Source of the DNA: a virus | Virus record (IMG/VR): IMGVR_UViG_3300010391_001464 | Span: 1 to 64,000 of that record | Length of the DNA: 64,000 bases | Strand: one strand, 5' to 3' | Shown: positions 1,046 to 43,006 of the stretch, in pieces | Numbering within the stretch: position 1 is the stretch's first letter | Layout: each line of letters starts with the position of its first letter | The notes under the pieces: generated by a model | What the model was told of the DNA's origin: nothing | The model's database searches: none | Seen by the model: only the letters and a program-made list of their open reading frames with translations | Position numbers and translations under genes: made by a program

Positions 1046-4000
1046 ATGATTAAATTTTTAAATTTGAGAAATTACATAAGAACTCTTGATCCTGTTACTA
1101 CAACAGATTTTTTAACTAGAGAAGGTGCTTGGCATGATGAAGGTTTATTTTCTGAAAAAATATTCGGTGCAGATGGTACAATGGATAGAAAAAATAAACA
1201 ATCATATATAAATCTAAATGCTAAAGTTATACATCCATCAGCATTAAAAGTTTTACATCAACTAGACCAAAAAATTAAAAAATTTATATCAACTGAAGCA
1301 TCATTCTCATTAGATAAAAATGGAGTTTTAATTGAAGATCCAAAAGGTGTTACAGGTATTAAAGAATTTATTAAAATATTTCCTAAAATAAAATTTAGGG
1401 GAGAAACTAAAACTAGAGAAAAATATATTAAATTATTAGAAGAAGCATATGAAAATGAACTTTTATTTATTCAATATCTTCCAGTAATTCCTCCAGATTT
1501 TAGACCAGCATATCGTGATGAAAGAAATCAATTAGTTATTGATAAATTAAATGAAGTATATCTTACTGTCATAAGAAGAGCATTTCAAATGAAATCTTCT
1601 GGTTCTGGTCCATTATATGACCTTCTTAATTTTGGGCTGCAGTCAGCAGTAATAGATCATGATAATTATATAAGATTAAAGCTTCAAAAAAAACAAGGAT
1701 TGATTAGACAACAAATTTTAGGTAAAAGAATTGACTTTTCAGGAAGAGCTGTTATTACCCCAGATCCAATTTTAAAAATAAATGAGATAGGTATACCTTT
1801 CAGAATAGCAGTTGCTATTTTTGAACCATTTGTCATTTTTCAACTTTTACACTCTGGAAAAACTGACAAGGCTGAGTTACAAAAAGAAATTAAAGGTTAT
1901 ACTAACATAGATTTATCTATAGAAACTATACATAGTATATTTAAATCTATAAAACAAGGTGATAAAATTCCAGATGGTTTATATAATATTTTCTTTGAAG
2001 CAACTAAACTTGCAATGGAAGGAAGAGTAGTTTTAGCTAAAAGAGATCCGGTTCTACAGGCTGAATCATATAGAGGTTTTAATCCAATTTTAACCAAAGG
2101 TGATACTATTACAATTTGCAACTTACAAGTTGGTGGATTTAATGCTGACTTTGATGGAGATCAAATGGCAATATATCATCCACTATCAGATGAAGCTCAA
2201 GATGAAGTTAAACAAAAACTTATGAGAGTTGAAACTGGTATTTCATCAAATTCTATAAACTTTGGCTTATCTAAAGAAATGTGGGTAGGTTTATATATAC
2301 TTACAAAAAATGTGGGGATTAAAAATTCAGCTCTTGAAATTACTAATGATGATATGTCTTCTATAAAGGATCCATATATTACTGTAAAATATAGAGGAAA
2401 AATAACTACTGCAGGAAAGGCTATTTTTAATAGCTGTTTTCCCCAGGACTATCCTTTTATTTTTGATCAATCTACTAAAAAATTAATATCTAAAGAAATT
2501 TTAAATATTATAACTAAGTATAGTTCTGATGTAGCTAGAGAAGTTACATATAAATTAGAACAAGTAGCATTTAAATGGGCAACAATAATTGCTCCAAGTA
2601 TCTCAATTAAAAATTTAATTCTTCCTAAAGAAATTATGGATTTAAAAATTATTTTGAATAAATCTACAAGTATAGAAGAAGCAGATAAAATTATAGCTAG
2701 TGCTAAATCTAAAATTGAAATATTTTTAAAGGATACTGGATTTGGAGATATTGTAGAATCAGATGCTGCAAAGGGATGGGATCAACCTACTCAAATCCTA
2801 TTTGCAAAAGGTATTATTTCTGATCCTACTGGAGAAAAACTTTCAGTAATAAAAGGATCATTTTCTGACGGTCTATCAAATGTAGATTTTTTTGATGCAG
2901 CATCAGGAGCAAGAAAAGGTATTATGGACAGAGTTCTAAATACTGCTGATACCGGTTATATGTCAAGAAAACTTGCATATTTATTAAATACTGTAGAAGT
3001 TGATAGACAACTAATAAATTGTAATACTAAAAGAACATTAGATTTAAAAATGGACTCTGATTTAGCAAATAGATTAACAGGTAGATTTGTGATTAAAAAT
3101 GGTAAAACACAAGAGTTTGATAAATCTATGTATAAAGATGGAGATACAATAAGATTAAAAAGTCCAGTTTTTTGTGAAAGTCCAAAATTATGTCATACAT
3201 GTTATGGTAGATTAATTGAAAGACACAGAAGTCCATATGTTGGAATTATAGCTGCCCAGATTATAGGTGAACGTGGTACTCAGTTGATAATGAGGACATT
3301 TCATACAGGTGGAGCAGTAACAATTATTAAGAAAAATATAATTAATGATATTATTAGTAATGATCCTTTAGTTACAAAAGATATAGTTATTAAAAATTTA
3401 TCTCAAAAAGAAAATCAATTAATAGCAGAAAATGATTGTTCTTTACTTCTAGATTTAACAGATGATTATACTGAAAATGAAAACCTGATAATAGATGAAG
3501 AAAAAGGAACAATATGGGTAAAAAGTATAATCTCAAAAATTGAATTCAAGGATTCTTTTTTTAATCTAATTTTAGATTATCCTTGTGAAATTGAAATTAA
3601 AGAAATGAATAAAGTAAATAAAGAGTCTATAAGATTAAATTTTAAATCTAGAGAAATGATACTTATTGCATCATTAGAAGCCGCAGAATTAAAAGGTCAA
3701 ATATTATATGTTGAAAGATTGATAAGCGGTAGAGAATTAGTTAAAGATCCCTCACACTTATTTAGAAAACTTATGAGAGTTTATGCACCTACTAGTAGTA
3801 TAGATGCAGTTCATTTAGAGGTTTTAGTATCACAATGTCAAAGGTATAGAGAAGACCCTAGATTTCCAGCTCGACTTGGTAAAGTTTGGGATCCTATAAC
3901 TATTAATATGAAACAAGTAATATTTAATGAAGGATTTATACAAGGTTTAGCTTTTGAGAATATAAATAACGCTATAAGTCAGGGGTTAATAGGAGAGGAC

Positions 4001-4069
4001 AAACCAGAAAATTCGGTTCTAGAGAAACTACTTCTTGGTACATTAGTGACAAAGGAGAAACGAAAATAA
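1046..4069 (+). CDS. rpoC: DNA-directed RNA polymerase beta'-like subunit (set 1)
   Basis: GLFSEKIFG, PVIPPDFRP, LGKRIDFSGRAVI, catalytic FNADFDGDQM, bridge helix TADTGYMSRKL, CHTCYG, trigger loop GERGTQLIMRTFHTGG. Confidence 0.97.
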   Translation: MIKFLNLRNYIRTLDPVTTTDFLTREGAWHDEGLFSEKIFGADGTMDRKNKQSYINLNAKVIHPSALKVLHQLDQKIKKFISTEASFSLDKNGVLIEDPKGVTGIKEFIKIFPKIKFRGETKTREKYIKLLEEAYENELLFIQYLPVIPPDFRPAYRDERNQLVIDKLNEVYLTVIRRAFQMKSSGSGPLYDLLNFGLQSAVIDHDNYIRLKLQKKQGLIRQQILGKRIDFSGRAVITPDPILKINEIGIPFRIAVAIFEPFVIFQLLHSGKTDKAELQKEIKGYTNIDLSIETIHSIFKSIKQGDKIPDGLYNIFFEATKLAMEGRVVLAKRDPVLQAESYRGFNPILTKGDTITICNLQVGGFNADFDGDQMAIYHPLSDEAQDEVKQKLMRVETGISSNSINFGLSKEMWVGLYILTKNVGIKNSALEITNDDMSSIKDPYITVKYRGKITTAGKAIFNSCFPQDYPFIFDQSTKKLISKEILNIITKYSSDVAREVTYKLEQVAFKWATIIAPSISIKNLILPKEIMDLKIILNKSTSIEEADKIIASAKSKIEIFLKDTGFGDIVESDAAKGWDQPTQILFAKGIISDPTGEKLSVIKGSFSDGLSNVDFFDAASGARKGIMDRVLNTADTGYMSRKLAYLLNTVEVDRQLINCNTKRTLDLKMDSDLANRLTGRFVIKNGKTQEFDKSMYKDGDTIRLKSPVFCESPKLCHTCYGRLIERHRSPYVGIIAAQIIGERGTQLIMRTFHTGGAVTIIKKNIINDIISNDPLVTKDIVIKNLSQKENQLIAENDCSLLLDLTDDYTENENLIIDEEKGTIWVKSIISKIEFKDSFFNLILDYPCEIEIKEMNKVNKESIRLNFKSREMILIASLEAAELKGQILYVERLISGRELVKDPSHLFRKLMRVYAPTSSIDAVHLEVLVSQCQRYREDPRFPARLGKVWDPITINMKQVIFNEGFIQGLAFENINNAISQGLIGEDKPENSVLEKLLLGTLVTKEKRK

Positions 4070-5466
4070 TGATAGTATTTAATTTAATTAGGCAATATTC
4101 CCAAAAAGTATCTCAGATCAAATTTCCAACAGATAAAGACCACCCTTTTTTTATTTCTTATTTAAGTGAGAATTCTACATTTGTTGAAGATTTACCTAAA
4201 TTAAAATTAAGATGGATTGATTTACATGATGTATTTATACCGTATACTAAAATTCCTTTCACTAAATATAAACCACAAGAAGATAGAAAAGGTTTTAGAG
4301 ACCTAAAATGGTTTCCACATTCAACTAATGAAAAAGTTCCATCTGGGAAGAGTATAGTATTTGATTACTCAAAATTTATAAAAGAAATTGAGAAAAAATT
4401 TAATCCAAAAACTTGGAGAATGAGAGCAGGAAATCTTTTAAAAAATATGGTAGTTAAATCTTTTTCTACAGTTCCTGACAATTATAAAAAAGTTTTATTA
4501 TATTCAATTGATACTTCAAAACCTCATAGAGATTTTATGGATAGAAAAATATTTCCCATTTTACTTCAAATAAGGGACGGAATTTTACCATATGATCATT
4601 TACTTTTATGTGTTATAAATGGTAATAGTTGTTATTATAGATTGATTATTAAAGACAGACAAGTAAATATTGGAAGAGCTAGGGCTTTATTAAGAAATAT
4701 AGCATTTGAAGACTCAGATAGTGATTCAGATACTGAAGAAGTTAAACAAGTTGCTGATATTATTTCTAAAAAAGTTGAAATTCATATTAAACCAGAAAAT
4801 AAAGAAAAAGTACATTCTATAGTAAAATTATATTTATCTAGGCAGCCAGAGGAAATAGAGAAAGTATTATCTAGTGAAGATCTTTCTGATTATCAAGCAG
4901 TACAAATAACTACTTCTGCATTACTTACATCTTTGCAAGGAAGTTCAAGAAGAGCTAAAGTTATATCAAAAAATATACCAAATGAGAAGAAAGTATCTGC
5001 TTTAAAAACAATAGATAAAAATCTAATAGATGAAATTCTTAAACCACAGAAGGCAATATCTACTTCATCCGAGATAATAGTTCAAGTTATAAATCCTTCA
5101 AAAGCTGTAGACGAAAAAACTCCAACTCATATCTTTGATAAAAGACAAATAGATTTTAAAACAAATCTTAAAAAAGATGTCGAAAATATATTTAATGTTC
5201 TTAAAGTAAAAGATATGCCTTTATTTGTTGATAAAATTGAAATATTAGACAAACCGTCGAAAAGTACTGAAATTGCAAAATCAGATGAAAGTACTATTGA
5301 AGCTAATCTAAAGGACTCGGAGGGAAAGATACATAAAGTTAAAATAGATATTCCTAAAATAAATCTAGATGGTACCTTTACAGTTAATGGTAGAAAGAAA
5401 TGTTTAGTTAACCAAATTATTTTAATACCTATAACATTTCCTAAGCTATATGAAAGTAGATTTTGA
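4069..5466 (+). CDS. rpoB: RNA polymerase beta-like subunit (set 1), N-terminal part with ~400-aa extension; apparently frameshifted into 5450-8179
   Basis: Ends with IPKINLDGTFTVNGRKKCLVNQ, the beta N-terminal GxFxINGxE/K segment. Removing one T from the T4 run at 5461-5464 fuses it in frame with the next ORF. Confidence 0.75.
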   Translation: MIVFNLIRQYSQKVSQIKFPTDKDHPFFISYLSENSTFVEDLPKLKLRWIDLHDVFIPYTKIPFTKYKPQEDRKGFRDLKWFPHSTNEKVPSGKSIVFDYSKFIKEIEKKFNPKTWRMRAGNLLKNMVVKSFSTVPDNYKKVLLYSIDTSKPHRDFMDRKIFPILLQIRDGILPYDHLLLCVINGNSCYYRLIIKDRQVNIGRARALLRNIAFEDSDSDSDTEEVKQVADIISKKVEIHIKPENKEKVHSIVKLYLSRQPEEIEKVLSSEDLSDYQAVQITTSALLTSLQGSSRRAKVISKNIPNEKKVSALKTIDKNLIDEILKPQKAISTSSEIIVQVINPSKAVDEKTPTHIFDKRQIDFKTNLKKDVENIFNVLKVKDMPLFVDKIEILDKPSKSTEIAKSDESTIEANLKDSEGKIHKVKIDIPKINLDGTFTVNGRKKCLVNQIILIPITFPKLYESRF

Positions 5467-8179
5467 ATCATTTTATGCAACATTTAGAATCAACAGTGTA
5501 AGAACTAAAAGAGAAAGTTATTTAATATCTTACATGGGTTCTTATTGGATTCCATTATTTTTAATATTATCATATGCATTTGGTTTTGATGAAGTATGTA
5601 AAAAATATGGTATAACATATTCGATAACTCAAATAAAACCAAAGAAAACAGTTCTATTTCATTCTAGACTTGATAAAGATAATTATATAATTTTTGGAAA
5701 TATAGATACTACACTTAAGGAAGAATTATGTCAGTCGTTTGTGCATGCCAATATTTATAAATTAGGAATTAAAAAAGAATTTAATTCAGAAGGATATTTT
5801 ACTGAAGTAATTACAGAATATACTGGAAGAATTAATTCTACATATAGAATTGAAGAACAAGTAGACAATATAGTAGACCCAGTTTCTAAACAAATCCTTA
5901 TAAATAAACAACTACCATTTAAACTAGAAGAAATTATGTACTATATGTCTTCTAAAGTTATTAATGGATTTAAACAAGATAGAAATGATCTAGAACAACA
6001 AAGGATAAGAAACTCAGAAGTTTTAGTTCATTTAATTTTAAAACAAATCTTAGCATCATATACTACATATAAAGAACAGATTTTATCTGGAAATAAAAAA
6101 GCAAAATTTGAGTTATCTCAATCTGAAGTATTAAATACATTTATAAATAATTCACAAATAGTTGTTGATATGGAATATGCTAATCCAGTAGAAGAAATGT
6201 CTACTATGACAAGGGTATCACCGGTAGGTAAGAATGTTGGTGGTATTCCAGACAAAAGATCATTACAAAATGATGCAAGAAATGTTCATGATAGTTATTT
6301 TGGAAATATAGATCCTTTAGATACTCCAGAAGCAGAAAATGTTGGTATAGTACAACATCTGACAGTAGATGCATTTATAACTTCTTCTAGGGGACTGTTT
6401 AGTAAAAAAGAAAAAAATAATAATATTAAATCAGGTATGTTATCAACGAGCGTTTCCTTGATTCCATTTGTTGAAAATAATGATGGTGCTAGAGTAATGC
6501 TTGGTGCAAACCAGGGAAGACAAACTATACCGTTAAAAAATCCAGAACCTCCTTTAGTACAATCAGGATATGAATCTTTATTAACTAATGTATTATCTGA
6601 AAATTTTATAAAAAGAGCACCATGTGACGGAAAAATTATTAAAATTACTAGTGATTATTTAATAATGACATGTAATGACGGAAAATCAAAAATTGAAATT
6701 CTTTTAACACCATCTCATTTAAGATCTGGATCTGGAAAAAATACATTAAGTGTATTTAAACCAGTAGTTGTAGATAATCAAAGTGTTAAAAAAGGTCAAA
6801 TTTTAGCGGAAGGTAGTTTTATATCACAAGGTTCTATATCATTAGGAAGAACTTTACTAACTGCTATAATGCCATATAAAGGATATAATTTCGAAGATGG
6901 TATTGTAATTAGTGAAAGTTTAGCAAATAGTGATAAGTTAACATCTCTCCACGGAATTCAAATTGATATAACTATTTCAGAAAAAGATAAATTAATTTTT
7001 ATTAATAAATTGGGTAAAGAAACAATTAAAGGAGAACCCTTACTAAGAAAAGTTGCTGGAGAATTAGGTGAAATAATAGGATTTGAAGATGAAGAAGCTG
7101 GACAAGAAATGGCTGCAGGTCAATTAATTAAAAAATCTCCTGGAGGTAAAATAGTAGACATTGAAGTTTTCTCTAATGTTTTTGATTCTAAATTCCCACA
7201 ATTAAAAGAATTATCAATAAGAACTGATAAAAGATATAAAAGAGATAGTAACGAAAAATATACTGAAAAGGGAATACCTATAGATGGTATCTTAGTAAGA
7301 TTTAAAATTGAGCAAGAGATGACTATTGGAATTGGAGACAAACTTACTAATAGACATGGTGCTAAAGGTATTATTTCATATATTGAAAAAGATGAAAATA
7401 TGCCAATAACTCCGTGGGGAGAGAAAGTAGATATTATAGTAAATCCAATTGGTATTATAGGAAGAATGAATGTTGGGCAATTATATGAACTATACACAGG
7501 TTTAATATGTAGATCATTAGCATATAAAATTAGCCTATTAAATGATAAAAATAAAGTAATTCCAATTTTAGATAAGGTTATGACTATGTTAGACACATCA
7601 AAAAATAAAGAGATGGCTAAAAGATTTATGTTAAATTTTAGATCATTGAGTGATAGACAATTTAAATTATTTATAGATCAAATAAAAAATAGAAAGGGAA
7701 TGTCTTTAATAATTCCTCCATTTAAAGCACCTAGCAATCAAGACTTAATAAAAATCTTAAATTATTTAGACTTGAAACCTGCATATAAATTAAAATTGCC
7801 TGAATTTAATATGAATACTTTTAATGAAGTTCCAGTTGGGTTTATGTACTTTTTAAAATTAGAACATATAGGAAGAGAAAAAATTCATGGAAGAAGTGTT
7901 GGACCTACAGTTGCTAAAACCCAACAACCAACTGCTGGAAAGCAAGCAGAAGGTGGACAGAGAATGGGAGAACTAGATACTTATAGTTTTATAAGTTATA
8001 ATGCATTAAAAACATTAAGTGAATCATTTGGTCCTTTATCTGATGATATAAAATCGAAGAATGAAATGTTGTCTGAAATAGTAACTACTGGACATGCTGA
8101 ATTTAAGGAACCACAGATGGTTCCTGTTAAAGATCTTTTAAATTTTTATTTTACCAGCTTAATTCTTGAGAGGAGATAA
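5450..8179 (+). CDS. rpoB: RNA polymerase beta-like subunit (set 1), main body
   Basis: DPLDTPEAENVG, IPFVENNDGARVMLGANQGRQ, GYNFEDGIVIS, GDKLTNRHGAKG, DIIVNPIGIIGRMNVGQ, GGQRMGELD. Confidence 0.96.
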   Translation: MKVDFESFYATFRINSVRTKRESYLISYMGSYWIPLFLILSYAFGFDEVCKKYGITYSITQIKPKKTVLFHSRLDKDNYIIFGNIDTTLKEELCQSFVHANIYKLGIKKEFNSEGYFTEVITEYTGRINSTYRIEEQVDNIVDPVSKQILINKQLPFKLEEIMYYMSSKVINGFKQDRNDLEQQRIRNSEVLVHLILKQILASYTTYKEQILSGNKKAKFELSQSEVLNTFINNSQIVVDMEYANPVEEMSTMTRVSPVGKNVGGIPDKRSLQNDARNVHDSYFGNIDPLDTPEAENVGIVQHLTVDAFITSSRGLFSKKEKNNNIKSGMLSTSVSLIPFVENNDGARVMLGANQGRQTIPLKNPEPPLVQSGYESLLTNVLSENFIKRAPCDGKIIKITSDYLIMTCNDGKSKIEILLTPSHLRSGSGKNTLSVFKPVVVDNQSVKKGQILAEGSFISQGSISLGRTLLTAIMPYKGYNFEDGIVISESLANSDKLTSLHGIQIDITISEKDKLIFINKLGKETIKGEPLLRKVAGELGEIIGFEDEEAGQEMAAGQLIKKSPGGKIVDIEVFSNVFDSKFPQLKELSIRTDKRYKRDSNEKYTEKGIPIDGILVRFKIEQEMTIGIGDKLTNRHGAKGIISYIEKDENMPITPWGEKVDIIVNPIGIIGRMNVGQLYELYTGLICRSLAYKISLLNDKNKVIPILDKVMTMLDTSKNKEMAKRFMLNFRSLSDRQFKLFIDQIKNRKGMSLIIPPFKAPSNQDLIKILNYLDLKPAYKLKLPEFNMNTFNEVPVGFMYFLKLEHIGREKIHGRSVGPTVAKTQQPTAGKQAEGGQRMGELDTYSFISYNALKTLSESFGPLSDDIKSKNEMLSEIVTTGHAEFKEPQMVPVKDLLNFYFTSLILERR

Positions 8180-8181
8180 AA

Positions 8182-8835
8182 ATGTTAGATAATGAAAGTA
8201 TATTATATGGTCTAGCTACAACTCAACAGCTGGAAATGGATGATGAAGACTTTGATATAGTTAAAAAAAATGCTGAAATACAATATGATTATAATAATCT
8301 TTTAGATTCTATAGGAACATCTGAATTTAAGGAGACTTATTTAAATTTTATAATATCTATTCAATTTTCTCCATTATCAGAACAACAAATATTAGCATCA
8401 AATATATTACAGAAAATACAAGAATTATATAATTATGAGTTTAGTCCGGACCCAGATATTATAACTTCAATACAAATTAAAAGAGTATATGAATTAATTA
8501 GTTTTATAGAATATGATAATAATGATTTTATATCAACAGTATGGCAAAGACTTAACATAGATCTCAAAGATTTTGACTTTAAAGAATTTTGTAAAACCAA
8601 TACTAAAAGAGTAACAAATGCAATAGAAAAAATAGTTTTTGATATGCAATTTGGAACTATGAGTGACGGTATGTTGACTAAAATTTTTTTAAGAACATAT
8701 TATAAAAATGGTTTATTAAATATGTTTTCAAGAATGACAGAAAAGAATAAACAACTTATTATTCTAAAAATGAGAGAAGGAGAACTATATGGAAGCGGAG
8801 AAAAAAGTATCGAAACTAGTAATAAAGAAGGGTAG
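8182..8835 (+). CDS. Hypothetical protein (RNAP set 1 operon)
   Basis: 217-aa ORF coupled to the beta gene, RBS AGGAG. Confidence 0.7.
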   Translation: MLDNESILYGLATTQQLEMDDEDFDIVKKNAEIQYDYNNLLDSIGTSEFKETYLNFIISIQFSPLSEQQILASNILQKIQELYNYEFSPDPDIITSIQIKRVYELISFIEYDNNDFISTVWQRLNIDLKDFDFKEFCKTNTKRVTNAIEKIVFDMQFGTMSDGMLTKIFLRTYYKNGLLNMFSRMTEKNKQLIILKMREGELYGSGEKSIETSNKEG

Positions 8836-9055
8836 TTTTAAGGTAGAATTAAATAAAGACGAAATGATTTCAGTTGAAGCAACACATGATGGTATTGTAT
8901 TTAATTTTAAACAAGGTTTACAATTATATTTTACTGATTCAAATATGCCATCAAATTATAAAAATAGTCTTAAAGCAGCAATAAATCAATATAGTGGATC
9001 AATTGTTACAGTCGATTTAAATAATCCATCAAGAGCAGTAAGCGTAGAAGTTTAA
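8789..9055 (+). CDS. Hypothetical protein
   Basis: 88-aa ORF, RBS GAAGGAG; class A motif at 8692-8706 upstream. Confidence 0.65.
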   Translation: MEAEKKVSKLVIKKGSFKVELNKDEMISVEATHDGIVFNFKQGLQLYFTDSNMPSNYKNSLKAAINQYSGSIVTVDLNNPSRAVSVEV

Positions 9056-9079
9056 AAAATATTATTATCTTAGAATCTT

Positions 9080-9093
9080 TATATATATTAATT
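9080..9093 (+). promoter_or_regulatory. Putative phage promoter, class B (TATATATATTAATT)
   Basis: Identical 14-mer at 43583-43596; both are intergenic and head a gene block. Confidence 0.55.
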
Positions 9094-9206
9094 AGTAGGA
9101 AATATTATTTATTTTAATTTAGAAATAAAGGAGGAGTAGTAATGGTATAATGGTCTTAGTTTTTTGTTCTAAAGTTTATTAATTTATCGAATTGTGAAGG
9201 AGAAAA

Positions 9207-9785
9207 ATGAGTAGTCAAATTGTACTAGAAAAGTTTATTGAAGAGATGAAAGTAGACCTATATCCTGTAACACTTTTAAAGTTCATTCTGAATAAGAAGA
9301 AGATTCTAAAGTATTTTCTTAATGCTAATGATCCAGAGTTTAAATTAAAATCTAATAAACAAATTACAATGGATCATAAAGACTGTGAACTATGTAAGTC
9401 TAAAGAAAGCGAAGGAATTCTCTGTAGGCAACATACATCTATTCATCGTACCATGTCTGCAAAGAAGGTAGTAAAAGATACAGATACAGATATTTATTTT
9501 TTCAAAAATGAAATTTTTAAGAAAACTACAGATAAACTAGTAATAATATATTGTCCTCATACTAAGCTTTTAAAAGGTGAAGTAACGGATGAAAAGGTTA
9601 GAAAAATTAATCCAATTACAATCATAGATAATTCAATTGAGCTTCCTAATTATGAAATAGTAGAAATTTCATCATCTGTATTACTGAATAGTATTTGTCG
9701 TTGTTGGTTTAATAATGAATTTAGTATTTTATCTATACCGAATAATAGTAATAGTTCTGATTGGGCTATTACGTCTAACAAATAA
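9207..9785 (+). CDS. Hypothetical protein with possible Zn-binding motif
   Basis: 192 aa, CELC...LCRQH, RBS GAAGGAG. Confidence 0.65.
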   Translation: MSSQIVLEKFIEEMKVDLYPVTLLKFILNKKKILKYFLNANDPEFKLKSNKQITMDHKDCELCKSKESEGILCRQHTSIHRTMSAKKVVKDTDTDIYFFKNEIFKKTTDKLVIIYCPHTKLLKGEVTDEKVRKINPITIIDNSIELPNYEIVEISSSVLLNSICRCWFNNEFSILSIPNNSNSSDWAITSNK

Positions 9786-9799
9786 TTGGGAGGTTAAAT

Positions 9800-10687: not shown

Positions 10688-10704
10688 TAGTAAGGTTATA
10701 ACAT

Positions 10705-10745
10705 AAAATAGAGAAGGGACAATTATCATCCCTTCTCTATTTTCC
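10705..10745 (+). terminator. Intrinsic terminator-like hairpin
   Basis: AAAATAGAGAAGGGA / TCCCTTCTCTATTTT inverted repeat after the SSB gene. Confidence 0.75.
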
Positions 10746-10773
10746 TCTAATAAAAATAAATTACTGAAGGAGA

Positions 10774-12003: not shown

Positions 12004-12006
12004 GAA

Positions 12007-12026
12007 GAGATATATAAATATATCTC
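12007..12026. promoter_or_regulatory. 20-bp intergenic palindrome GAGATATAT-AA-ATATATCTC
   Basis: Perfect 9-bp arms; counterpart with the same architecture at 43016-43035. Confidence 0.5.
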
Positions 12027-12051
12027 CATATTATATATATAGAGAGGATAA

Positions 12052-16096: not shown

Positions 16097-16098
16097 TT

Positions 16099-31680: not shown

Positions 31681-31690
31681 TGGAGGATTA

Positions 31691-34255: not shown

Positions 34256-34261
34256 TTAAAT

Positions 34262-34305
34262 AAAAATCCGAGGATTTAAAAATAGTACAAATCCTCGGGT
34301 TTTTT
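34262..34305 (+). terminator. Intrinsic terminator closing the Ubl cassette
   Basis: AAAAATCCGAGGATTT / AAATCCTCGGGTTTTTT hairpin with U-tract. Confidence 0.8.
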
Positions 34306-34391
34306 AATTGAAAAATTAAAAAAATAATTTAAAATAATACAAAAATATGCTTCAAAATATAAAATAAATTCGGAATCTAACTGTTTTAATA

Positions 34392-34404
34392 AGAACATAA
34401 TAAA
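34392..34404 (+). promoter_or_regulatory. Putative class A promoter (AGAACATAATAAA)
   Basis: Intergenic, after the terminator and before RBS GGAGGT of 34426. Confidence 0.45.
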
Positions 34405-34425
34405 TGATATGGAGGTGCAAAAATT

Positions 34426-35367
34426 TTGCATCAAGATATAGAAAGAATAAAAACTGTAAATGAGTTCTTAGAAAAAACTTCTACAACTACATATATTACT
34501 ATATGTGTTATAGGGATAGGAACTCTAGGTGGATTTCTTTCTAGATGCATCTCTGACCTGGAAGAAGTAACTGAATTATGCATAATTGATTATGATATTA
34601 TAGAAGAAAAGAATTTAATAAATTCAATATACACATATGAAGATCTGGGGCAGTATAAAGTAGATGCATTAGAAAGAATAATTAAAAGAGAGAATAAGAA
34701 TATAAATATAACAAAAATAAACGAGAGATATATTGAAAGTAAAACGATTCTACCGAAGAAATATGATTTAGTTTTAGATTGTAGAGATTTTACTTATGAC
34801 AGACTAAAAGAAATATCTGCTCGATTATATATTACATCAAGATATCTTATTATCGATTGTAGAAAAAATGTAACATATGATACTCATACAGAAGGAAAGT
34901 ATTTATCTTTTTTAAGTAAAAATGATTTAAGATATGCAAGCGTTGAAGCAACAATGTTGATTATTAAAGGTGGTTTAAAGTTACTTATAGAAAATGAGTC
35001 AGTTATGTCAATTGAACTAGATCATCTAGATAGAAAAGTACATGATGACATTTCAAAATCAAAAGAAGTAGATATTATATATGAGCCTCACCAAAATGAA
35101 AAAAGATTCGTTAATTTAAAAGAAGTATTTAATTTGATAATCGAATATAATAAACTAAACGATTTAGTCATATGCTTGGGCAGTAAAAACGATTCCAATA
35201 TAGATAAACTTGTTCAAAGGTCAAGTCTAAAAAGTTATCAAGATGTTTTACAAGTTTTAATGCCGCTAGTTTCTCTTCCCTATACACATTCAAGCTATCT
35301 AATTAAATTACAGATAGTAGATAATAAATATTATATTGAATTATTACCTGACACAGGAGCCGCGTAA
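34426..35367 (+). CDS. Second, divergent ThiF/E1-like protein
   Basis: ICVIGIGTLGG, IDYDIIEEKNL, DLGQYKVDAL, LVLDCRD; the usual NLxRQ Arg is absent. Confidence 0.75.
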   Translation: MHQDIERIKTVNEFLEKTSTTTYITICVIGIGTLGGFLSRCISDLEEVTELCIIDYDIIEEKNLINSIYTYEDLGQYKVDALERIIKRENKNINITKINERYIESKTILPKKYDLVLDCRDFTYDRLKEISARLYITSRYLIIDCRKNVTYDTHTEGKYLSFLSKNDLRYASVEATMLIIKGGLKLLIENESVMSIELDHLDRKVHDDISKSKEVDIIYEPHQNEKRFVNLKEVFNLIIEYNKLNDLVICLGSKNDSNIDKLVQRSSLKSYQDVLQVLMPLVSLPYTHSSYLIKLQIVDNKYYIELLPDTGAA

Positions 35368-36054
35368 ATGATCCCATTCAAACACGAAAAAGTAGGAGAC
35401 ATTGAAAGCTTCAACTTTAATATAGAAATAGTTCCGGAATTTATACAATATCAAGGAAAGATTAAGAAAATTGTAAAAATACCAAATGACTATTTCAAGA
35501 TTAGAGAGTTTAGAATTATAGTAAACAAAAATGTAGTTGAAGATTTAATTATAATGAATGCATTTCATCCAAATGCAACTCCAAATCCTAATGAAGTAGG
35601 ACTAAAATTTGGAGAAACACCACCTTATATTCAATTTTTCTGTCTTCCAGAAAATTTGAAGAATAAAGATATGGGAATAGATTTTAATATTGAGCATTAT
35701 ATAGAATATTTTATCCAAATGTTAAAAACATATAACTATGATTCATCTTATTGGATAAGATGGAATGGATTTACTCTAATTGATTATGAACATGTGATAG
35801 ATAAAGATGATAAAAAGTTAGAGAAAAAAGGTAAGAAGGAAAATCTTAAGTCTGCTTTAAAAGACTTAGGTACTTATGTAATATCAGATACTACTAATGC
35901 AGCTAAAAAATCATTATCAGAAGTAGTTTCATCTGATAATTTTAGGTTTCCTAGAAGTTCTTTTGAACTGGAATTGAGGATGGATCAACTATTATTACAA
36001 CTAGAAAGAAATTTAATATTAGCGTTGCAACGGAGATTAGATGGTAAACAATAA
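35368..36054 (+). CDS. Possible E2/UBC-fold protein
   Basis: AFHPNA followed by FFCLP resembles the UBC HPN...C arrangement; abuts the ThiF gene. Confidence 0.45.
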   Translation: MIPFKHEKVGDIESFNFNIEIVPEFIQYQGKIKKIVKIPNDYFKIREFRIIVNKNVVEDLIIMNAFHPNATPNPNEVGLKFGETPPYIQFFCLPENLKNKDMGIDFNIEHYIEYFIQMLKTYNYDSSYWIRWNGFTLIDYEHVIDKDDKKLEKKGKKENLKSALKDLGTYVISDTTNAAKKSLSEVVSSDNFRFPRSSFELELRMDQLLLQLERNLILALQRRLDGKQ

Positions 36055-36235
36055 AGAAGATTCATTAGAAGTAGTTATAAGAAAAATGATTCATAAAGAA
36101 TTAGAAATAGTTGAACGAGAAAAGGTTGACCAACTTGTAAAAGAATTAATTCCTGAGTTAGATAAATTAATTTGTATTAAGGTTAAAGAACATCTAAAAG
36201 GAATTGCAGAATTTATATTAGAAAAGACTAAGTAA
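36041..36235 (+). CDS. Small helical hypothetical protein before beta' (set 2)
   Basis: 64 aa, RBS GGAG. Confidence 0.55.
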   Translation: MVNNKEDSLEVVIRKMIHKELEIVEREKVDQLVKELIPELDKLICIKVKEHLKGIAEFILEKTK

Positions 36236-36254: not shown

Positions 36255-38957
36255 ATGCCCAAATTTTTAAATTTTCATGAATTTTGTAAAGAGTTGCCAG
36301 AAATAACAAGTGTAAAAATTATAGATAAAAAAAATTTCCATTCAGAAGGTTTATTTTCTGAGCAGATCTTTGGACCATTAAATAATTATACATGTCAATG
36401 TGGTATTTATTACGGCTCATCAAAGGATGGTTATTTATGTCCTGAATGTAATGTACAAGTTGTAAATAGTGATGAGAGGAGAAGAAGATTTGCAAAAATT
36501 ATACTTCCTATTCCAGTAGTAAATCCATTATTTTATGATATGTTAGTAGATATTGGAGATGGAGATTTAAAAGATATATTAGATGAAATTATGAAAAGTG
36601 ATGTTAGTATTATGTATAAAGATAAAGATGTTTATTATGTTACGGAACAAGGAAAACAACCGGAAGGAGTAGAAACCTGGGAACGACTTGATGCAATATA
36701 TGAAGTAGTAAGTAATATCTCAAATAAATTAGCTGAGAAAGGAATCGAAGAGTGGAAAATAGTTAATAAAAATTTAGATAATCTAATAATAGATCAGATT
36801 ATCGTGTTACCACCTGACTTACGGCCAGCAGCTAAGGGAATTGAGAGAAATAATCAAGTACTTGACCAAATTAATAGGTACTATGCTCAAATCCTTCATA
36901 AGAAGGAATCTATGAAGGATACAATTATTGATATTGAAAAAGATAAGAAACTATATTATAGTTATTATAGGCAAATTCAAAAAGATGTGTCAGAACTATA
37001 TAAACATATACTTGAAAAACTTTCTAAAAAAGAAGGACTAATTAGAGGAAATATTTTAGGGAAAAGAATTGATTTTTCAGGAAGAGCAGTTATTGTTCCT
37101 GACCCAACTCTTGACTTAGATTCATGTGTATTACCTTATCTTATGTTTTTAGAATTATTTAAACTTCAAGTATCTAAACGATTAATATATAAAGGAAAGT
37201 TTAAACTTCTCAATAACGCAATTGATTTTGTTGATAAATGTATTGAATTAAAAACTACATCATTATTTAGAATATGTGAAGAAATTGCAAAAGATGAAGT
37301 ATGTATTTTAAATAGACAACCATCTTTACATCGTTTAAGCATGATAGGTTTTAATATAAAAATATCATTAGATGAAGTAATTAAAATTCATCCATTGGTA
37401 TGTCCTGGATTTAATGCTGACTTTGACGGGGATCAAATGGCAGTATATGTTCCTATTACTGAAGTCACTAAACAAGAAGTTAAAGATAAGCTTCTAATGT
37501 CAAAGAATTTAAATAATCCATCTGACAATAGTTTGAGTACTACTCCTAGCCAAGATATTATTTTAGGTCTTTATTCTTTATCTGCAAATTTATTTCCAGA
37601 TTTACTGGAAATAGTTGAATTTAAAGGAAGAAAGATTACAGAAAGTAGAAAAATTGTAAATGAATGTTTTCCAGATGATTATCCAATAGTAGATGAAGAG
37701 TTAAAAAAATTAAATATTATAAAAATTTTGAATGATATTAAAGACAGATATCCTGAATCAGTTATAAAGGAAGTATTAGATAAAACTAAATTAGTAGGTT
37801 TTAAATATTCTACATTGTTTGGTTCAACAATGGCATTAAATGAATGTTACCTTAAAGATGCTGACAAATATAAACAAATTATTTATTCTGAACAAGCAAT
37901 ATCACAACAGTTGAATAGAGTTTCTTCTAATGAAACCAAAGACTTAATGAAAAAGAACTTTAATTATGCATATACAGTTGAATCTGGAGCTAGAGGAAGT
38001 TGGGATCAAGTTAGACAAATCATTTTAACTAGAGGATTTATATCTAACTTTAAAGGACAGATACTTCCAGTTCCAATTAAACATAGTTTAATAGATGGAT
38101 TAAATCAAGAAGAATTTTTTCTATCAACATATGGTTGTAGAAAAGGACTTCTTGATGTAGCTTTAAATACTGGAATCTCAGGTTATTTATCTAGAAAATT
38201 AATATTTACTTGTTCAAATCTTCAGTTAGATGAAAACTTAAAAGATTGTGGAACTACCGATACATTAAGTATTTTTGTAAAAGATGAAAAGAAAGCAAAA
38301 ATGTTAATCGGTAGATGGTTTGTAATTAATAATAATTTAATTTTGATTACAAAGGCTAATTACGAATCTTTTGTAGGTCAAACTTTAAATTTAAGAAGTC
38401 CAATATTATGTAAAAGCCCAAAAGTATGTACTACTTGCTATGGAGATTTATATAAATCTTTACATAGTAAATTTGTAGGAGTTATATCAGCTCAGTCTTT
38501 AGGTGAATGTAATACTCAACTCGTTCTCCGCACGTTTCACACGAGTGGAGTTGCATCTGTAAAAGATAAGATAAATAATAAAGATATGATCCAACAAGAT
38601 ATTATTGGAGATTTATCTTCAGTGTCTAAAATGCTTCATAATTTTCAAGGAAAAAATTATACAGATTTAGTTAGTAAGCTTTTTGAGGTATATAATAATA
38701 GTAGAAAAATTCATCATGTTCATTTTGAAGTATTGGTTGCACAATTGATGTGGAATAATCTCCATAAGTGGAGATTATTAGAAGATAGAGATAAAAAAGA
38801 AATACAATTTTACTCAGTTCAAACTGTGCCAGCAAAAGAAAGTTGGTTGTTAGGTTTAGCATTTAGCAACCCAAAGAAAAATATCCTTAGTGGTATTCTT
38901 TATCCTGGAAACTATACTGGAGTAATGGATAAAATTCTATGTGGAGAAAAGATATAG
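36255..38957 (+). CDS. rpoC: DNA-directed RNA polymerase beta'-like subunit (set 2)
   Basis: GLFSEQIFGP, zinc-binding CQCG...CPEC, VLPPDLRP, LGKRIDFSGRAVI, LNRQPSLHR, FNADFDGDQMAV, SGYLSRKL, TQLVLRTFHTSG. Confidence 0.97.
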   Translation: MPKFLNFHEFCKELPEITSVKIIDKKNFHSEGLFSEQIFGPLNNYTCQCGIYYGSSKDGYLCPECNVQVVNSDERRRRFAKIILPIPVVNPLFYDMLVDIGDGDLKDILDEIMKSDVSIMYKDKDVYYVTEQGKQPEGVETWERLDAIYEVVSNISNKLAEKGIEEWKIVNKNLDNLIIDQIIVLPPDLRPAAKGIERNNQVLDQINRYYAQILHKKESMKDTIIDIEKDKKLYYSYYRQIQKDVSELYKHILEKLSKKEGLIRGNILGKRIDFSGRAVIVPDPTLDLDSCVLPYLMFLELFKLQVSKRLIYKGKFKLLNNAIDFVDKCIELKTTSLFRICEEIAKDEVCILNRQPSLHRLSMIGFNIKISLDEVIKIHPLVCPGFNADFDGDQMAVYVPITEVTKQEVKDKLLMSKNLNNPSDNSLSTTPSQDIILGLYSLSANLFPDLLEIVEFKGRKITESRKIVNECFPDDYPIVDEELKKLNIIKILNDIKDRYPESVIKEVLDKTKLVGFKYSTLFGSTMALNECYLKDADKYKQIIYSEQAISQQLNRVSSNETKDLMKKNFNYAYTVESGARGSWDQVRQIILTRGFISNFKGQILPVPIKHSLIDGLNQEEFFLSTYGCRKGLLDVALNTGISGYLSRKLIFTCSNLQLDENLKDCGTTDTLSIFVKDEKKAKMLIGRWFVINNNLILITKANYESFVGQTLNLRSPILCKSPKVCTTCYGDLYKSLHSKFVGVISAQSLGECNTQLVLRTFHTSGVASVKDKINNKDMIQQDIIGDLSSVSKMLHNFQGKNYTDLVSKLFEVYNNSRKIHHVHFEVLVAQLMWNNLHKWRLLEDRDKKEIQFYSVQTVPAKESWLLGLAFSNPKKNILSGILYPGNYTGVMDKILCGEKI

Positions 38958-38958
38958 G

Positions 38959-39972
38959 ATGTACTTTTGCGATTATGGTTGTGGTAATGAAGCAATAATT
39001 ACGTTCAAAAATGGAAAAAAGTGTTGCCAAGAAAAATATTCAAAATGTCCCGGGTTACGAAAAAAATATAGTAACCCGGGATCTAAAAATCCAAGATTTG
39101 GTAAGCATTGGTCTGAGGAATGGAAAAAAAATCATTCTGAAAAATTAGTAGGAAGAAAGATTAAAAGAACTTTTATTCCTATAAAATTAGAAGAAGACAA
39201 AAATATCTTATGTGATTTTTGTAATAAAAGACTAGCTAAGTATAAATTAAATAATGGAAAAAATTGTTGTGAAGAACATCAAAGTAAATGTCCAGAAATA
39301 AGAGTTAAAATAGGAAAAAAAATAAAAGGAAAAATGGTTGGTATAAATCATCCATTTTTTGGAAAAACTCACACAGATGAAGTTAAACAATTACAATCTA
39401 TTAGAGTAAAAGGAAATAAATATAATTTAAATACATTAAATAAGATAAATAAAAAGTATCCATTTTTTTCAGAGATTGAAAATACAAAAGAGATAAATGG
39501 AAGTTTAATAGTAAAATGTAAACATTGTAAAAAATGGTTTGAACCTACAAGATCTCAGTTATATGAAAGAATTTATGCTATAAAAAATAAAGGGACTATT
39601 CATGATACAGGAAATTCATATTTTTACTGTTCTTCTGAATGTAAACTAGAGTGTGTATATTATTACAGAAAAAAAGATCCTGACATTCTAAGAGAATATG
39701 AAAGATATAAACAAAATGTATTAAAATATACTAATAGAAATATAAAATTTAACTTTGATAAAATCGAAAATTCAAGTAAAAAAATAAATGGAGATAACTT
39801 AGAACTGGATCATAAATTTTCAATATATTCAGGTTTTATAAATAATATTGATCCAAAAATAATTGGTCATTGGAAAAATTTAAAATATATAAAAAAAGTA
39901 GAAAATAGAAAGAAAAGAGAATCTTGTTCTATAACTATTGAAGAAGTTCTTTCATATTCACAGGAGGTTTAA
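38959..39972 (+). CDS. Free-standing HNH-type homing endonuclease with NUMOD3 and Cys-rich repeats
   Basis: Repeats CDYGCG...NGKKCC...SKCP and CDFCN...NGKNCC...SKCP; FGKHWSEE and FGKTHTDE; C-terminal ELDHKFSI...GHWKNL...ENRKK. Sits between beta' and beta. Confidence 0.75.
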   Translation: MYFCDYGCGNEAIITFKNGKKCCQEKYSKCPGLRKKYSNPGSKNPRFGKHWSEEWKKNHSEKLVGRKIKRTFIPIKLEEDKNILCDFCNKRLAKYKLNNGKNCCEEHQSKCPEIRVKIGKKIKGKMVGINHPFFGKTHTDEVKQLQSIRVKGNKYNLNTLNKINKKYPFFSEIENTKEINGSLIVKCKHCKKWFEPTRSQLYERIYAIKNKGTIHDTGNSYFYCSSECKLECVYYYRKKDPDILREYERYKQNVLKYTNRNIKFNFDKIENSSKKINGDNLELDHKFSIYSGFINNIDPKIIGHWKNLKYIKKVENRKKRESCSITIEEVLSYSQEV

Positions 39973-39976
39973 AATA

Positions 39977-42900
39977 TTGAATATTATTAATCCTAATTTT
40001 AAAGTTAATGAAGATAAAAATATTTTTAATATTAGACAAAAGGAATTTGATAACTTAGAACCTTTAATAAGACAAACTATTTCTCCAGTAGAGGAACTTG
40101 GTTTTACTGTTAAAGAATTTGGAATCAGAGAAAGTAGATATACTGCAGGAGATCTAAGTAAAACTTTAAAACAAAATATAGTTATTAAACTTGAGAAAAA
40201 TAGTACTGATATAGATATAACTTTAGCAATGCCAACATTGGTTGATAAAAATTATATAGTTATAGGTGGAAGAAAAAAAATTCCTCAATTTCAATTATTT
40301 GATGTTCCAGTTATAACAAGAGGAAAAAGTACTAAAATAAGAACGAATGTTGCTACAATTATAGTAGAAGAGGAAAAAAATCCACCATTTATTAGCGTAA
40401 CTGTATTAAGTAAAAAAGTTCCACTTTCTCTTATTATTTTTGCTAAATATTCTAAACAAGAAATTATTGATAGATTTAAATTAGTGGACCTTGATGAGGA
40501 GTCATTAAAAAGAGATAATTATTATGAAAAATTATTATATGATTTAAAGAAAACATATATTGAAGCAATAAATTCTGAAATGACTCAAGATGATTTTATT
40601 AAAGCTCTCGGTGAGTACTACTCAAAATATAATGCTAAAGTAAAAGGTGAAGATGTCATATATGCTTTAGATATTATGTTAAAAGTAGATATTATGACCG
40701 CTAGATTTTTTAAATCTAAAAATATCATAGATGAAATAATTGAAGTAATAAAATTAGGTGAGATTGATGATCTAGATTATAGAAATAAAAGAATTAGATG
40801 TTTTGAGTATATAGTATTAGCAAAAGTTTCAAAAATTATATTCGACCTTTGTACATCAAATAGATCGCTAAAACAACCAAAATTTAATGTAAATTCTACT
40901 CAAATTTTAACTGAATGTAACGTGTCTGATATAGTTCAGTTTGATTTTTCTATTAATCCTATAGAGGAATTAACTAAACTATCTAGAGTAAGTTTAGTAG
41001 GCCCAGGTGGTTTTGATAAACAAAATATTCCGGAGCATCTAAGGGATGTAGCTCCTACAATGTTTGGAAGAATATGTCCAGTTGATACTCCAGATAGAGA
41101 AAATTGTGGAGTTCAGCATAATTTATTACCAAATGTTGATTTAGACGAAAATCTTAAATTTACAGATAAAATCCTAGATAAACAACCAATATCTATTCCA
41201 GTAGCAATGGTTCCATTCCTAGAACATGATGATCAAACCAGACTTCAAATGTCTTCTTCACAAATGAGACAGGCAATTATGTTAAAGGATTTTGACCAAG
41301 CATTAGTACAATCTGGAATAGAAGGAATATATACTGATCAAACTCAGTTTTTAAAACGTGCTAAAAAAGATGGAGAAATATTATATGTAGATAATAAATA
41401 TATAATAGTTGTTTATGATGATAAAGAAGTTGAAATATTTGATATATCATATAGAAAAATTTATGTAGGAAATATGGACATATTCAAAGTCTATATAAAA
41501 CAAGGAGACAAAGTAAAGCGAGGTGATATATTAGCTGAAAGTAATTATTGCCATGATGGAAGGATACAATTTGGAAAGAATTTATTAACAGGTGTAATGA
41601 TTCATTATGGTTATAATTATGAAGACGGTATAGTAATATCAGATAGATTAGTAAAGGATGGAATTCTTACTTCTCCTCATTTTGTAGATTTATCATTTAA
41701 TATCCCAACTAATAAGGTTTTATTAACTCTTGATTCTAAGAAGTATAAACCCTTGCCAGAAATAGGCGAAGAGATAAAAAATGGTAATCCCTACGCAATA
41801 ATAAAAGAAATGCCAACAGATAACATGGTTGATTATTATACTGTGTTCGAAGAATCAAATCCATTATTAACTAAAAATGACACGATTGTAACTGAAGCAA
41901 ACATATTTATTAATGAATGGAATGAGAATATTCCAGAATTTAATCATTGGGTTAAAGATGTAATTAAAAAGCAAAATAGAGAAGAAGAACAATTTCAAGG
42001 AATTCTTAATGAATATTTACCGAAAGACTCAGCTACTAAATTTATAAAAGATAATGATTTAGATAAATTTTCATCAGTTGGTAAATATAAAATAAAGAAT
42101 GAAAAAATAAATGGTATTCATGTAGAAATGTATGGAATATTCTTTAGGCCTATAAAGGTCGGAGATAAAATTGGAAATAGACATGGTAATAAAGGTATAA
42201 TTTCAAATATAGTACCACATGATAAAATGCCAAAGTTAGAGGATGGTAGACATCTTGATATTTGTATAAATCCACTTGGTATTATATCTAGAATGAATAT
42301 TGGTCAATTATTTGAATTACATTTAACAATGTCTATTAATGATTTAAAGAAAAATCTTTTAGTAATGTTGAACAGTAGTTCAAATACTAAACAGATTGAT
42401 ATGAAAAAATATTTAATAGAATATATTAAGATTTTAGATAATACTGTTGGTAATTGGTATTCTTGTCAGTTCATATCTCAAATTCCAAAAGTTATAGATG
42501 AAAACTTTATAAATAATTTATTTATAGTTCAACCACCGTTTGAATCAACTCCAATACAAAAGATTGAAGAGGCATTAAAATTTACAGGTACTAATTTTAC
42601 TTATAATTTACATGATCCTATTTCTAATCATAATTTCTTAAATAAAATAGCAGTAGGTTATATGTATTTCTTCAGAATGGTACATATAGCTGAAAACAGA
42701 CTAGCGGCTAGAGGTATTGCATCTTACGCTAGAAGAACTCTTCAACCATTAGCAGGAAGAAAAAACCGTGGTGGACAAAGATGTGGAGAAATGGAAACTG
42801 CATGTTTAATTGCGCATGATGCCCCACATAATTTATATGAATTTCAGACTACTAAATCTGACTGTATAGATTTAAAAAATAAATATATTCGAGAACAAAT

Positions 42901-43006
42901 AGAAACAGATTTAGTTAAAGAAGAAAAAGAGATTGATTCTGTATCAGAGTCAGTTAAATTACTGAATGCATACCTCACTGTAATAGGTGTAGATCGTAAA
43001 AACTAA
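39977..43006 (+). CDS. rpoB: DNA-directed RNA polymerase beta-like subunit (set 2)
   Basis: GRICPVDTPDRENCG, PFLEHDDQTRLQMSSSQMRQA, GYNYEDGIVIS, GDKIGNRHGNKG, NPLGIISRMNIGQ, GGQRCGEME; TTG start after AGGAGG at 39962. Confidence 0.96.
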   Translation: MNIINPNFKVNEDKNIFNIRQKEFDNLEPLIRQTISPVEELGFTVKEFGIRESRYTAGDLSKTLKQNIVIKLEKNSTDIDITLAMPTLVDKNYIVIGGRKKIPQFQLFDVPVITRGKSTKIRTNVATIIVEEEKNPPFISVTVLSKKVPLSLIIFAKYSKQEIIDRFKLVDLDEESLKRDNYYEKLLYDLKKTYIEAINSEMTQDDFIKALGEYYSKYNAKVKGEDVIYALDIMLKVDIMTARFFKSKNIIDEIIEVIKLGEIDDLDYRNKRIRCFEYIVLAKVSKIIFDLCTSNRSLKQPKFNVNSTQILTECNVSDIVQFDFSINPIEELTKLSRVSLVGPGGFDKQNIPEHLRDVAPTMFGRICPVDTPDRENCGVQHNLLPNVDLDENLKFTDKILDKQPISIPVAMVPFLEHDDQTRLQMSSSQMRQAIMLKDFDQALVQSGIEGIYTDQTQFLKRAKKDGEILYVDNKYIIVVYDDKEVEIFDISYRKIYVGNMDIFKVYIKQGDKVKRGDILAESNYCHDGRIQFGKNLLTGVMIHYGYNYEDGIVISDRLVKDGILTSPHFVDLSFNIPTNKVLLTLDSKKYKPLPEIGEEIKNGNPYAIIKEMPTDNMVDYYTVFEESNPLLTKNDTIVTEANIFINEWNENIPEFNHWVKDVIKKQNREEEQFQGILNEYLPKDSATKFIKDNDLDKFSSVGKYKIKNEKINGIHVEMYGIFFRPIKVGDKIGNRHGNKGIISNIVPHDKMPKLEDGRHLDICINPLGIISRMNIGQLFELHLTMSINDLKKNLLVMLNSSSNTKQIDMKKYLIEYIKILDNTVGNWYSCQFISQIPKVIDENFINNLFIVQPPFESTPIQKIEEALKFTGTNFTYNLHDPISNHNFLNKIAVGYMYFFRMVHIAENRLAARGIASYARRTLQPLAGRKNRGGQRCGEMETACLIAHDAPHNLYEFQTTKSDCIDLKNKYIREQIETDLVKEEKEIDSVSESVKLLNAYLTVIGVDRKN

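Follow-up and report, generated by a model that had tools for sequence, protein, structure and literature searches.

Two bacterial-type RNA polymerase cores in an uncultured sediment jumbo phage and their possible correspondence to virion and non-virion polymerases

The first 64,000 nucleotides of the IMG/VR virus record IMGVR_UViG_3300010391_001464, here referred to as the window, encode two bacterial-type RNA polymerase (RNAP) cores, each made up of one gene for a beta' and one gene for a beta subunit (set 1 and set 2, Table 1). Pfam Rpb1 domains were found in both beta' open reading frames (ORFs), and Rpb2 domains in the set-2 beta and in the larger of the two ORFs into which the set-1 beta is divided as called. 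Identity between the sets amounts to 31% for beta' and 30% for beta, and both have the catalytic motifs, which are NADFDGD in beta' and N[FY]ED, RHGxKG, and GGQRxGE in beta. This agrees with an earlier reading of the same stretch (the original prediction), which had proposed two complete beta' plus beta pairs without genes for alpha, omega, or sigma. Pfam searches for Sigma70_r2, Sigma70_r4, the alpha N-terminal domain, and omega/Rpb6 (PF04542, PF04545, PF01000, PF01192) gave no match in the 90-kb contig and none in four large relatives (G000-G004), while control genomes gave hits in the same searches. The catalytic architecture and motifs are those of the bacterial core (alpha2-beta-beta'-omega plus sigma), from which the window differs by the absence of these accessory genes, by an order of beta' then beta, and by subunits which are several hundred residues shorter.

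The two sets are distinguished by the N-termini of their subunits. As had been noticed earlier, the zinc-binding cysteines are missing from the set-1 beta', which has no cysteine within its first 120 residues, and are kept in the set-2 beta', where the four cysteines align with those of the bacterial zinc ribbon. In every set-1 orthologue the ribbon has been removed by a deletion of about 25–30 residues. The set-1 beta carries in addition an N-terminal extension which set 2 lacks. Its presence was correctly foreseen but its length was not, as it spans about 325–350 (approximately 340) residues ahead of the true beta N-terminus instead of the suggested 400 or so; it is conserved in 23 members of the clade. 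The expectation that beta' would stand directly before beta holds for set 1 but not for set 2, where an ORF with HNH and NUMOD3 features lies between the two genes.

The four large relatives, of 248, 255, 277, and 149 kb, were searched over their whole records, and each was found to have a set-2 beta' with 54–64% identity as well as a set-1-type beta', the distance from set 1 to set 2 being 34–42 kb on the same strand, and both sets are found at 50–64% protein identity in every one. Direct terminal repeats are present in the 277-kb relative, whose genome is rated complete. Some 25 genes, from the small ORF ahead of the set-1 beta' through the set-2 beta', are collinear between this genome and the window. 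All orthologues of both sets keep the catalytic motifs, across a genomic G+C content of 24–40%. The occurrence of two sets is confirmed as real and not an artefact. The ORF within set 2 is missing from that site in all four large relatives and has homologues elsewhere in two related loci (L019 and L021); it is a mobile homing endonuclease gene.

Table 1. Features of the two RNA polymerase loci (window coordinates)
Feature	Coordinates	Strand	Description
TAGAACAAA-type motif	635..643	+	Candidate phage promoter (putative function), about 40 nucleotides 5' of the first set-1 operon gene
Conserved 121 amino acid protein	677..1042	+	Candidate small accessory subunit; two invariant cysteines; always directly upstream of set-1 beta'
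Set-1 beta'	1046..4069	+	1007 amino acids, unsplit; Rpb1; NADFDGD at residue 366; N-terminal zinc ribbon deleted
Set-1 beta, first frame	4069..5466	+	465 amino acids; P-loop-kinase-like ~1–215, helical 223–321, true beta N-terminus ~351–456 (predicted)
Set-1 beta, remainder	5450..8179	+	909 amino acid ORF as called; Rpb2; conserved from 5462; catalytic motifs intact
T4 run breaking the set-1 beta frame	5461..5464	+	AGA TTT TGA; relatives in frame
Block downstream of set-1 beta	8182..13416	+	Proteins of 217, 88, 192, and 295 amino acids, 409 amino acid ATPase, 454 amino acid DUF2201 metallopeptidase/VWA protein; conserved
Set-2 upstream stretch	34391..36235	+	AAGAACATA motif, ThiF-like gene, E2-like gene, 64 amino acid ORF; no recognised terminator before set-2 beta'
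Set-2 beta'	36255..38957	+	900 amino acids, unsplit; Rpb1; NADFDGD at residue 387; zinc ribbon C47/C49/C62/C65 kept
HNH homing endonuclease	38941..39972	+	343 amino acids; Cys-rich repeats, NUMOD3, C-terminal HNH-like motif; between set-2 beta' and beta
Set-2 beta	39938..43006	+	1022 amino acids, unsplit; Rpb2; no N-terminal extension

Two polymerases of this kind in one genome are also found in phages of the phiKZ type (Chimalliviridae) and of the AR9/PBS1 type, which like the window carry two paralogous beta'/beta enzymes without alpha, omega, and sigma. These enzymes, one of which is a virion and the other a non-virion polymerase, consist of four to five polypeptides each, whereas the window has one gene per subunit (with the set-1 beta broken by one extra T), and sequence identity to the window sets is only about 20–30%. 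Two observations connect the individual sets to the individual enzymes. The zinc ribbon deletion of set 1 (IFGx-xG[ST]x[DE]R) and the LVED..G.TG..F segment following it are found in phiKZ gp180 and AR9 gp145, the N-terminal pieces of the virion beta', and the CxC..CxxC pattern is kept by set 2, bacteria, and the non-virion phiKZ gp055 with its four cysteines. Comparison with profiles of the two sets points in the same direction (Table 2). The virion proteins phiKZ gp180, AR9 gp145 exon 1, and phiKZ gp178 favour the set-1 profiles by 68–92 bits, and the non-virion subunits favour the set-2 profiles by 8–34 bits with one exception. Like the set-1 beta with its approximately 340 additional residues, phiKZ gp178 has a long stretch, of about 510 residues, before the beta N-terminus. 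In our reading of these sequences, set 1 would correspond to the virion enzyme and, with less confidence, set 2 to the non-virion enzyme. The two-polymerase programme which had been suggested as an analogy to phiKZ and AR9 is supported by the deletion and the profile scores, and the sets look homologous to those enzymes, not merely analogous.

Table 2. Scores (bits) of phiKZ and AR9 polymerase subunits against set-1 and set-2 profiles (AR9 subunit labels taken from the record annotation)
Protein	Subunit	Set-1 profile	Set-2 profile
phiKZ gp180	Virion beta' N	111.6	23.2
AR9 gp145 exon 1	Virion beta' N	95.3	3.0
phiKZ gp178	Virion beta, annotated structural head protein	112	44
phiKZ gp080	Virion beta' C	18.8	14.9
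AR9 gp264	Virion beta' C	112.5	117.5
phiKZ gp055	Non-virion beta' N	22.6	30.2
phiKZ gp074	Non-virion beta' C	50.5	62.6
AR9 gp154	Non-virion beta' C	91.2	104.3
AR9 g089	Non-virion beta C	122.5	135.8
AR9 g105	Non-virion beta N	37.4	71.6
AR9 gp270 exon 1	Non-virion beta' N	29.6	9.7

A number of results weigh against this assignment. More sequences had entered the set-1 profiles than the set-2 profiles (13 versus 5 for beta', 9 versus 5 for beta). The virion subunit AR9 gp264 scores slightly higher with set 2, the non-virion AR9 gp270 exon 1 scores higher with set 1 and is also devoid of the zinc ribbon, and the AR9 149-kb beta piece yields a tie between the set profiles. The extensions of gp178 and of the set-1 beta have no detectable similarity to each other (hhalign probability 0.3%). 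When a tree was made from the C-terminal half of beta', the two sets came out as sisters (support 93) with the phiKZ/AR9 virion and non-virion groups outside them, and by approximately unbiased (AU) tests none of the four possible pairings was rejected (p 0.08–0.41). Chimallin was not matched with the single-sequence query phiKZ gp054, a search without positive control, and tubulin had no Pfam-model match, the complete genome included. Finally, an AGAACA-type motif is also present 1.9 kb upstream of set 2; as it thus stands before both operons, no separate promoter classes can be assigned to the two sets.

A phylogeny had been proposed as a check. In the beta' tree each set is monophyletic (support 93 for set 1, 100 for set 2), and both join in a group (99) from which the remaining phage and bacterial RNAPs of the sample are separate, the two bacterial sequences falling outside (100). 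In the tree of the C-terminal half, set 1, set 2, and the phiKZ/AR9 virion and non-virion enzymes are all grouped together (99). As neither trees nor AU tests settle which set pairs with which of these enzymes, a one-to-one orthology rests on the N-terminal characters and the profile scores, the discrete characters having told more than the tree. A global alignment including the phiKZ/AR9 fragments was discarded because the fragments were smeared across columns.

No Pfam match was obtained for the first, 465 amino acid ORF of the set-1 beta, which contains the extension. The final 120 residues of this ORF align with the extreme N-terminus of the set-2 beta (…GTFTVNGRKKCLVNQ…), and in an AlphaFold model of the ORF with a confidence (pLDDT) of 81, residues 351–456 could be superposed on the N-terminal beta subunit of the non-virion polymerase of AR9 (7s00_c, Z 7.2, root mean square deviation 3.3, 102 residues) and also on the beta subunits of the M. 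tuberculosis, African swine fever virus, and plastid polymerases. Ahead of this true beta N-terminus, residues 1–215 form an alpha/beta domain (pLDDT about 90) and residues 223–321 are helical. The best fold matches of the alpha/beta domain are middling, with the zeta toxin 1gvn_B at Z 7.9 (root mean square deviation 4.3, 154 residues), PezT at 7.5, and GTPases of the signal recognition particle at 6–6.7; Foldseek against the PDB with the model of the whole ORF gave weak P-loop matches only, with template modelling scores of about 0.2. The Walker A motif GxxxxGK[ST] is absent. At its position the loop between strand 1 and helix 1 consists of the four residues SENS with an invariant E34 and N35, and the domain is therefore not a standard NTPase. 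According to the model, the extension is a P-loop-kinase-like domain without Walker A followed by a helical domain, with no recognisable DNA-binding module. Structure prediction of this region, suggested at the outset, gave no direct evidence that the extension acts in promoter recognition or virion packaging.

A profile search of 1.84 billion representative proteins yielded 159 relatives of the extension. The long ones carry the region at their N-terminus, one of them (in locus L071) being confirmed as a beta subunit, and the others include apparent standalone copies of about 240–280 amino acids and many short fragments. No cultured phage covers the extension of the set-1 beta. In L071, a standalone paralogue of 258 amino acids (8001–8777) is located between beta' and a beta which still has a fused copy, and about 20 further proteins of the standalone type (240–280 amino acids) are present in the protein library. 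Searches for related loci with the 465 amino acid ORF and with P0104 gave no matches, and one alignment (A3) was set aside as too divergent.

The reading which is favoured here, with a probability of about 0.6, is that the phage transcribes its genes independently of the host with two paralogous cores of one beta' and one beta each, set 1 being of the virion type and set 2 of the non-virion type. Set 1 would be the derived enzyme, in which the zinc ribbon of beta' has been lost and a P-loop-kinase-like plus helical module has been fused to beta, encoded in a conserved operon behind the TAGAACAAA motif, and it would represent the undivided counterpart of the phiKZ/AR9-type virion RNA polymerase. 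From this correspondence we infer that it may be synthesised late, packaged into the particle, injected with the DNA, and used for transcription of the early genes. Set 2, with its zinc ribbon kept and without an extension, would be the more canonical enzyme; it would correspond to the non-virion polymerase and be synthesised once infection has begun, to serve the middle and late genes. For both sets, the assignments of packaging, time of expression, and promoter class are putative.

It may be asked whether both polymerases are instead made only after infection and share the work according to time or class of promoter (such as middle and late), with none packaged and the host RNA polymerase reading the first genes. 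Such an arrangement would go well with the location of both sets in a region of replication and nucleic acid metabolism, not among structural genes, with the AGAACA-type motif before both operons, and with a tree which leaves orthology with the virion polymerase unsettled. Against it, set 1 has a specific deletion and far higher profile scores in common with the virion subunits of two distant phages. Furthermore, neither a sigma factor nor another recognisable device for redirecting the host RNAP was found, and sigma-70-like promoters (as well as terminators) showed no enrichment over shuffled sequence, so that this alternative is considered unlikely. That one of the sets is an inactive copy in decay, or that two single-polymerase phages have been joined in a chimeric contig, the two objections raised in the original prediction itself, is very improbable. 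Admittedly, the set-1 beta is frameshifted as sequenced and a selfish endonuclease gene sits in the set-2 operon; yet in every large relative, at the identities and over the range of G+C given above, both sets have all catalytic motifs, which makes inactivity of one of them unlikely. The conserved synteny of both sets in the four relatives, with a gene order matching that of a complete (circularly permuted/direct terminal repeat) genome, excludes a chimeric contig, and G+C content and strand bias are uniform over 1–43 kb of the window.

The stretch from 4069 to 8179 had been taken as one long beta gene and actually comprises two ORFs in different frames. The 465 amino acid ORF stops at a TGA at 5464–5466 and the rest of beta continues in the +1 frame from 5462; read across the break the protein has 1369 amino acids. 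In 22 relatives the junction reads (R/K/L/V) TTY in frame, mostly TTT GAR AGT, compared with AGA TTTT GAA with one extra T (within 5461–5464) in the window. In 24 of 27 related IMG/VR loci the set-1 beta is one ORF of 1355–1475 amino acids directly after beta', and the sole homologue from the first protein search was likewise a single ORF crossing the junction. Both beta' and the set-2 beta are single ORFs in the window, and the set-1 beta is broken there only by the one extra T. A gene at 26808–27844 is also split, near 27041–27050, with AGAAAG in place of the AGAAAAG of a relative, and its counterpart in the complete relative is a single ORF of 344 amino acids. Because this second one-base homopolymer frameshift affects an unrelated conserved gene, a single-base error of assembly or sequencing in the homopolymer is considered the most likely cause of the break in the set-1 beta, as judged from these alignments. 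There remains the thought that the break is real and functional, either by a +1 ribosomal shift on UUU_UGA (5461–5466), for which prfB is a precedent, or by two polypeptides with a restart at ATG 5450. AGA UUU UGA does place a stop after a slippery Phe codon, a +1 shift would re-pair UUU with UUU and restore ...SRF-ESFY... collinear with the relatives, and genuinely split subunit genes do exist in other clade members. All 22 relatives are, however, in frame at this codon, neither a Shine-Dalgarno-like stimulator upstream nor a ribosome-binding site before ATG 5450 was found, and the frameshift around 27045 is the pattern expected of a sequencing or assembly error, which renders a functional break quite improbable.

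If the favoured assignment of set 1 to the virion type and set 2 to the non-virion type is correct, it can tentatively be proposed, at somewhat less than even odds, that the lineage keeps the undivided form of both phiKZ/AR9-type polymerases, the duplication predating the separation of the groups and the fragmentation coming later. The virion/non-virion duplication would then be older than the separation of these phage groups, and the division of subunits in the cultured jumbo phages would be a later event, plausibly caused by insertions of homing endonucleases. A 2026 review (PMC13282480) states that it is unknown if the two polymerases of jumbo phages, virion and non-virion, go back to a duplication or were acquired separately. 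A clade with both enzymes whole would be a tractable point of comparison in this respect, with zinc ribbon loss and N-terminal addition as characters which mark the virion-type enzyme and polarise the changes, and two-gene cores should be easier to express than enzymes of four to five pieces. The P-loop-like domain without Walker A, fused or standalone, would be a previously undescribed accessory module of RNAP.

Divided and fused polymerase genes were also observed among the related loci. The set-1 beta' is split into about 780 plus 230 amino acids in four loci (L001, L005, L009, L025) and into 505 plus 686 amino acids in L012, and the set-1 beta is split into 902 plus 521 amino acids in L022/L023. 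In several of these cases an extra ORF lies between the pieces, and it is possible that the divided set-1 genes are snapshots of how split phage RNAP subunits arise. Many IMG/VR contigs (L028-L060, e.g., L029 9014–15208 and L057 9089–19864) have single ORFs of about 2,050–3,600 amino acids with beta-like and beta'-like parts; these fused single-chain RNAPs branch outside the clade of set 1 and set 2.

Among cultured phages, Cobetia phage Carin-5, Rhizobium phage RHph_Y65, and Vibrio phage Va2 have an unsplit beta' of 1083–1192 amino acids and are all located outside the set 1 plus set 2 clade in the beta' tree. The beta' of Carin-5 and RHph_Y65 keeps the zinc ribbon as set 2 does, and the order in Carin-5 is beta' then beta as in the window. 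Unlike in the window, genome-wide searches of these two phages found only one beta' locus in each. In Carin-5 (L083, 1305–1895) a gene annotated as RNA polymerase sigma factor is situated directly 5' of the unsplit beta' and beta. The cultured Fusobacterium phage JD-Fnp1 (ON464759.1, 180 kb) has an unsplit beta' of 930 amino acids at 14842–17634 and a second beta'-like match in an ORF of 490 amino acids at about 100982–102007. Its branch is long and adjoins set 1 in the tree, and through this phage two-polymerase phages may become accessible in culture.

The source of the window is a single virus record of 90,144 bp, held as an IMG/VR virus, with a G+C content of 27%, nearly all genes on the plus strand, and a CheckV completeness of 29%. 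A megablast search of the phage collection gave no match. One public run, a sediment metagenome, holds the contig with 96% of the sampled words and is probably the source sample. The phage is an uncultured giant (jumbo) sediment phage of the multisubunit-RNAP-encoding Caudovirales (mReC; Weinheimer and Aylward 2020, Nat Commun 11:4506, PMC7481178). The features by which members of this lineage are recognised, beta and beta' of at least 800 amino acids each with NADxDGD in beta', are present in the window; for the set-1 beta the 909 amino acid piece alone is already long enough. Orthologues with 50–64% identity lie on contigs of that paper, and the bacterial sequences are outside the group in the beta' tree. 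Supplementary Dataset 2 of the paper contains, among others, WOR52_10000459 (277,131 bp), Ga0180432_10000070, and Ga0180432_10000164, and its table lists on one contig a set 'a' (beta about 1360, beta' about 1005 amino acids) and a set 'b' (beta about 1000–1019, beta' about 900 amino acids). The layout of two sets has therefore been tabulated before. As published tables already include the lineage and both gene sets, the value of this particular window is limited. RNAP serves as a phylogenetic marker in that paper, whose main text and methods are silent on two sets per genome, on their differing architecture, and on a virion/non-virion reading; in later reviews no discussion of two sets per mReC genome was found.

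The surroundings of set 1 are conserved in the order (T/A)AGAACAAA motif, 121 amino acid protein, beta', beta, and six more genes. The motif is found 410–515 nucleotides upstream of the set-1 beta' at 10 of 16 loci. WAGAACAWA occurs 11 times on the plus strand, which is about what base composition predicts by our own estimate, and it is only the intergenic placement and the conservation upstream of set 1 which are suggestive of a function. Homologues of the 121 amino acid protein were identified by BLAST in 12 of 16 set-1 loci; 14 sequences were aligned, and two more (L071, L072) were assigned by position. The protein matched nothing in Pfam or PHROG, its AlphaFold2 model had no informative fold match (best Z 5.0), and it has no similarity to the sigma factor located at the equivalent place in Carin-5. 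The 295 amino acid protein of the downstream block resembles only Pam3 gp34/DUF5895 proteins of unknown function. Just 5' of the operon, a second NUMOD3 homing-endonuclease-like ORF (2–637) is cut by the start of the contig.

Reading TAG as glutamine lengthened no ORF in the window. A tRNA with the anticodon CTA, which would decode amber, is encoded at 44503–44574, and despite it 16 of 75 long ORFs on the plus strand of the contig stop at TAG. At 44000–50000 the G+C content rises to 33–36% compared with about 26% in the rest of the window. The region between the two sets (14315–24611) encodes GyrB-like and ParC-like subunits of a type II topoisomerase, a QueD/PTPS-like gene, a superfamily 2 helicase, and an SbcC/Rad50-like ATPase, and a JAB/ThiF ubiquitin-like module occupies positions 29047–36054.

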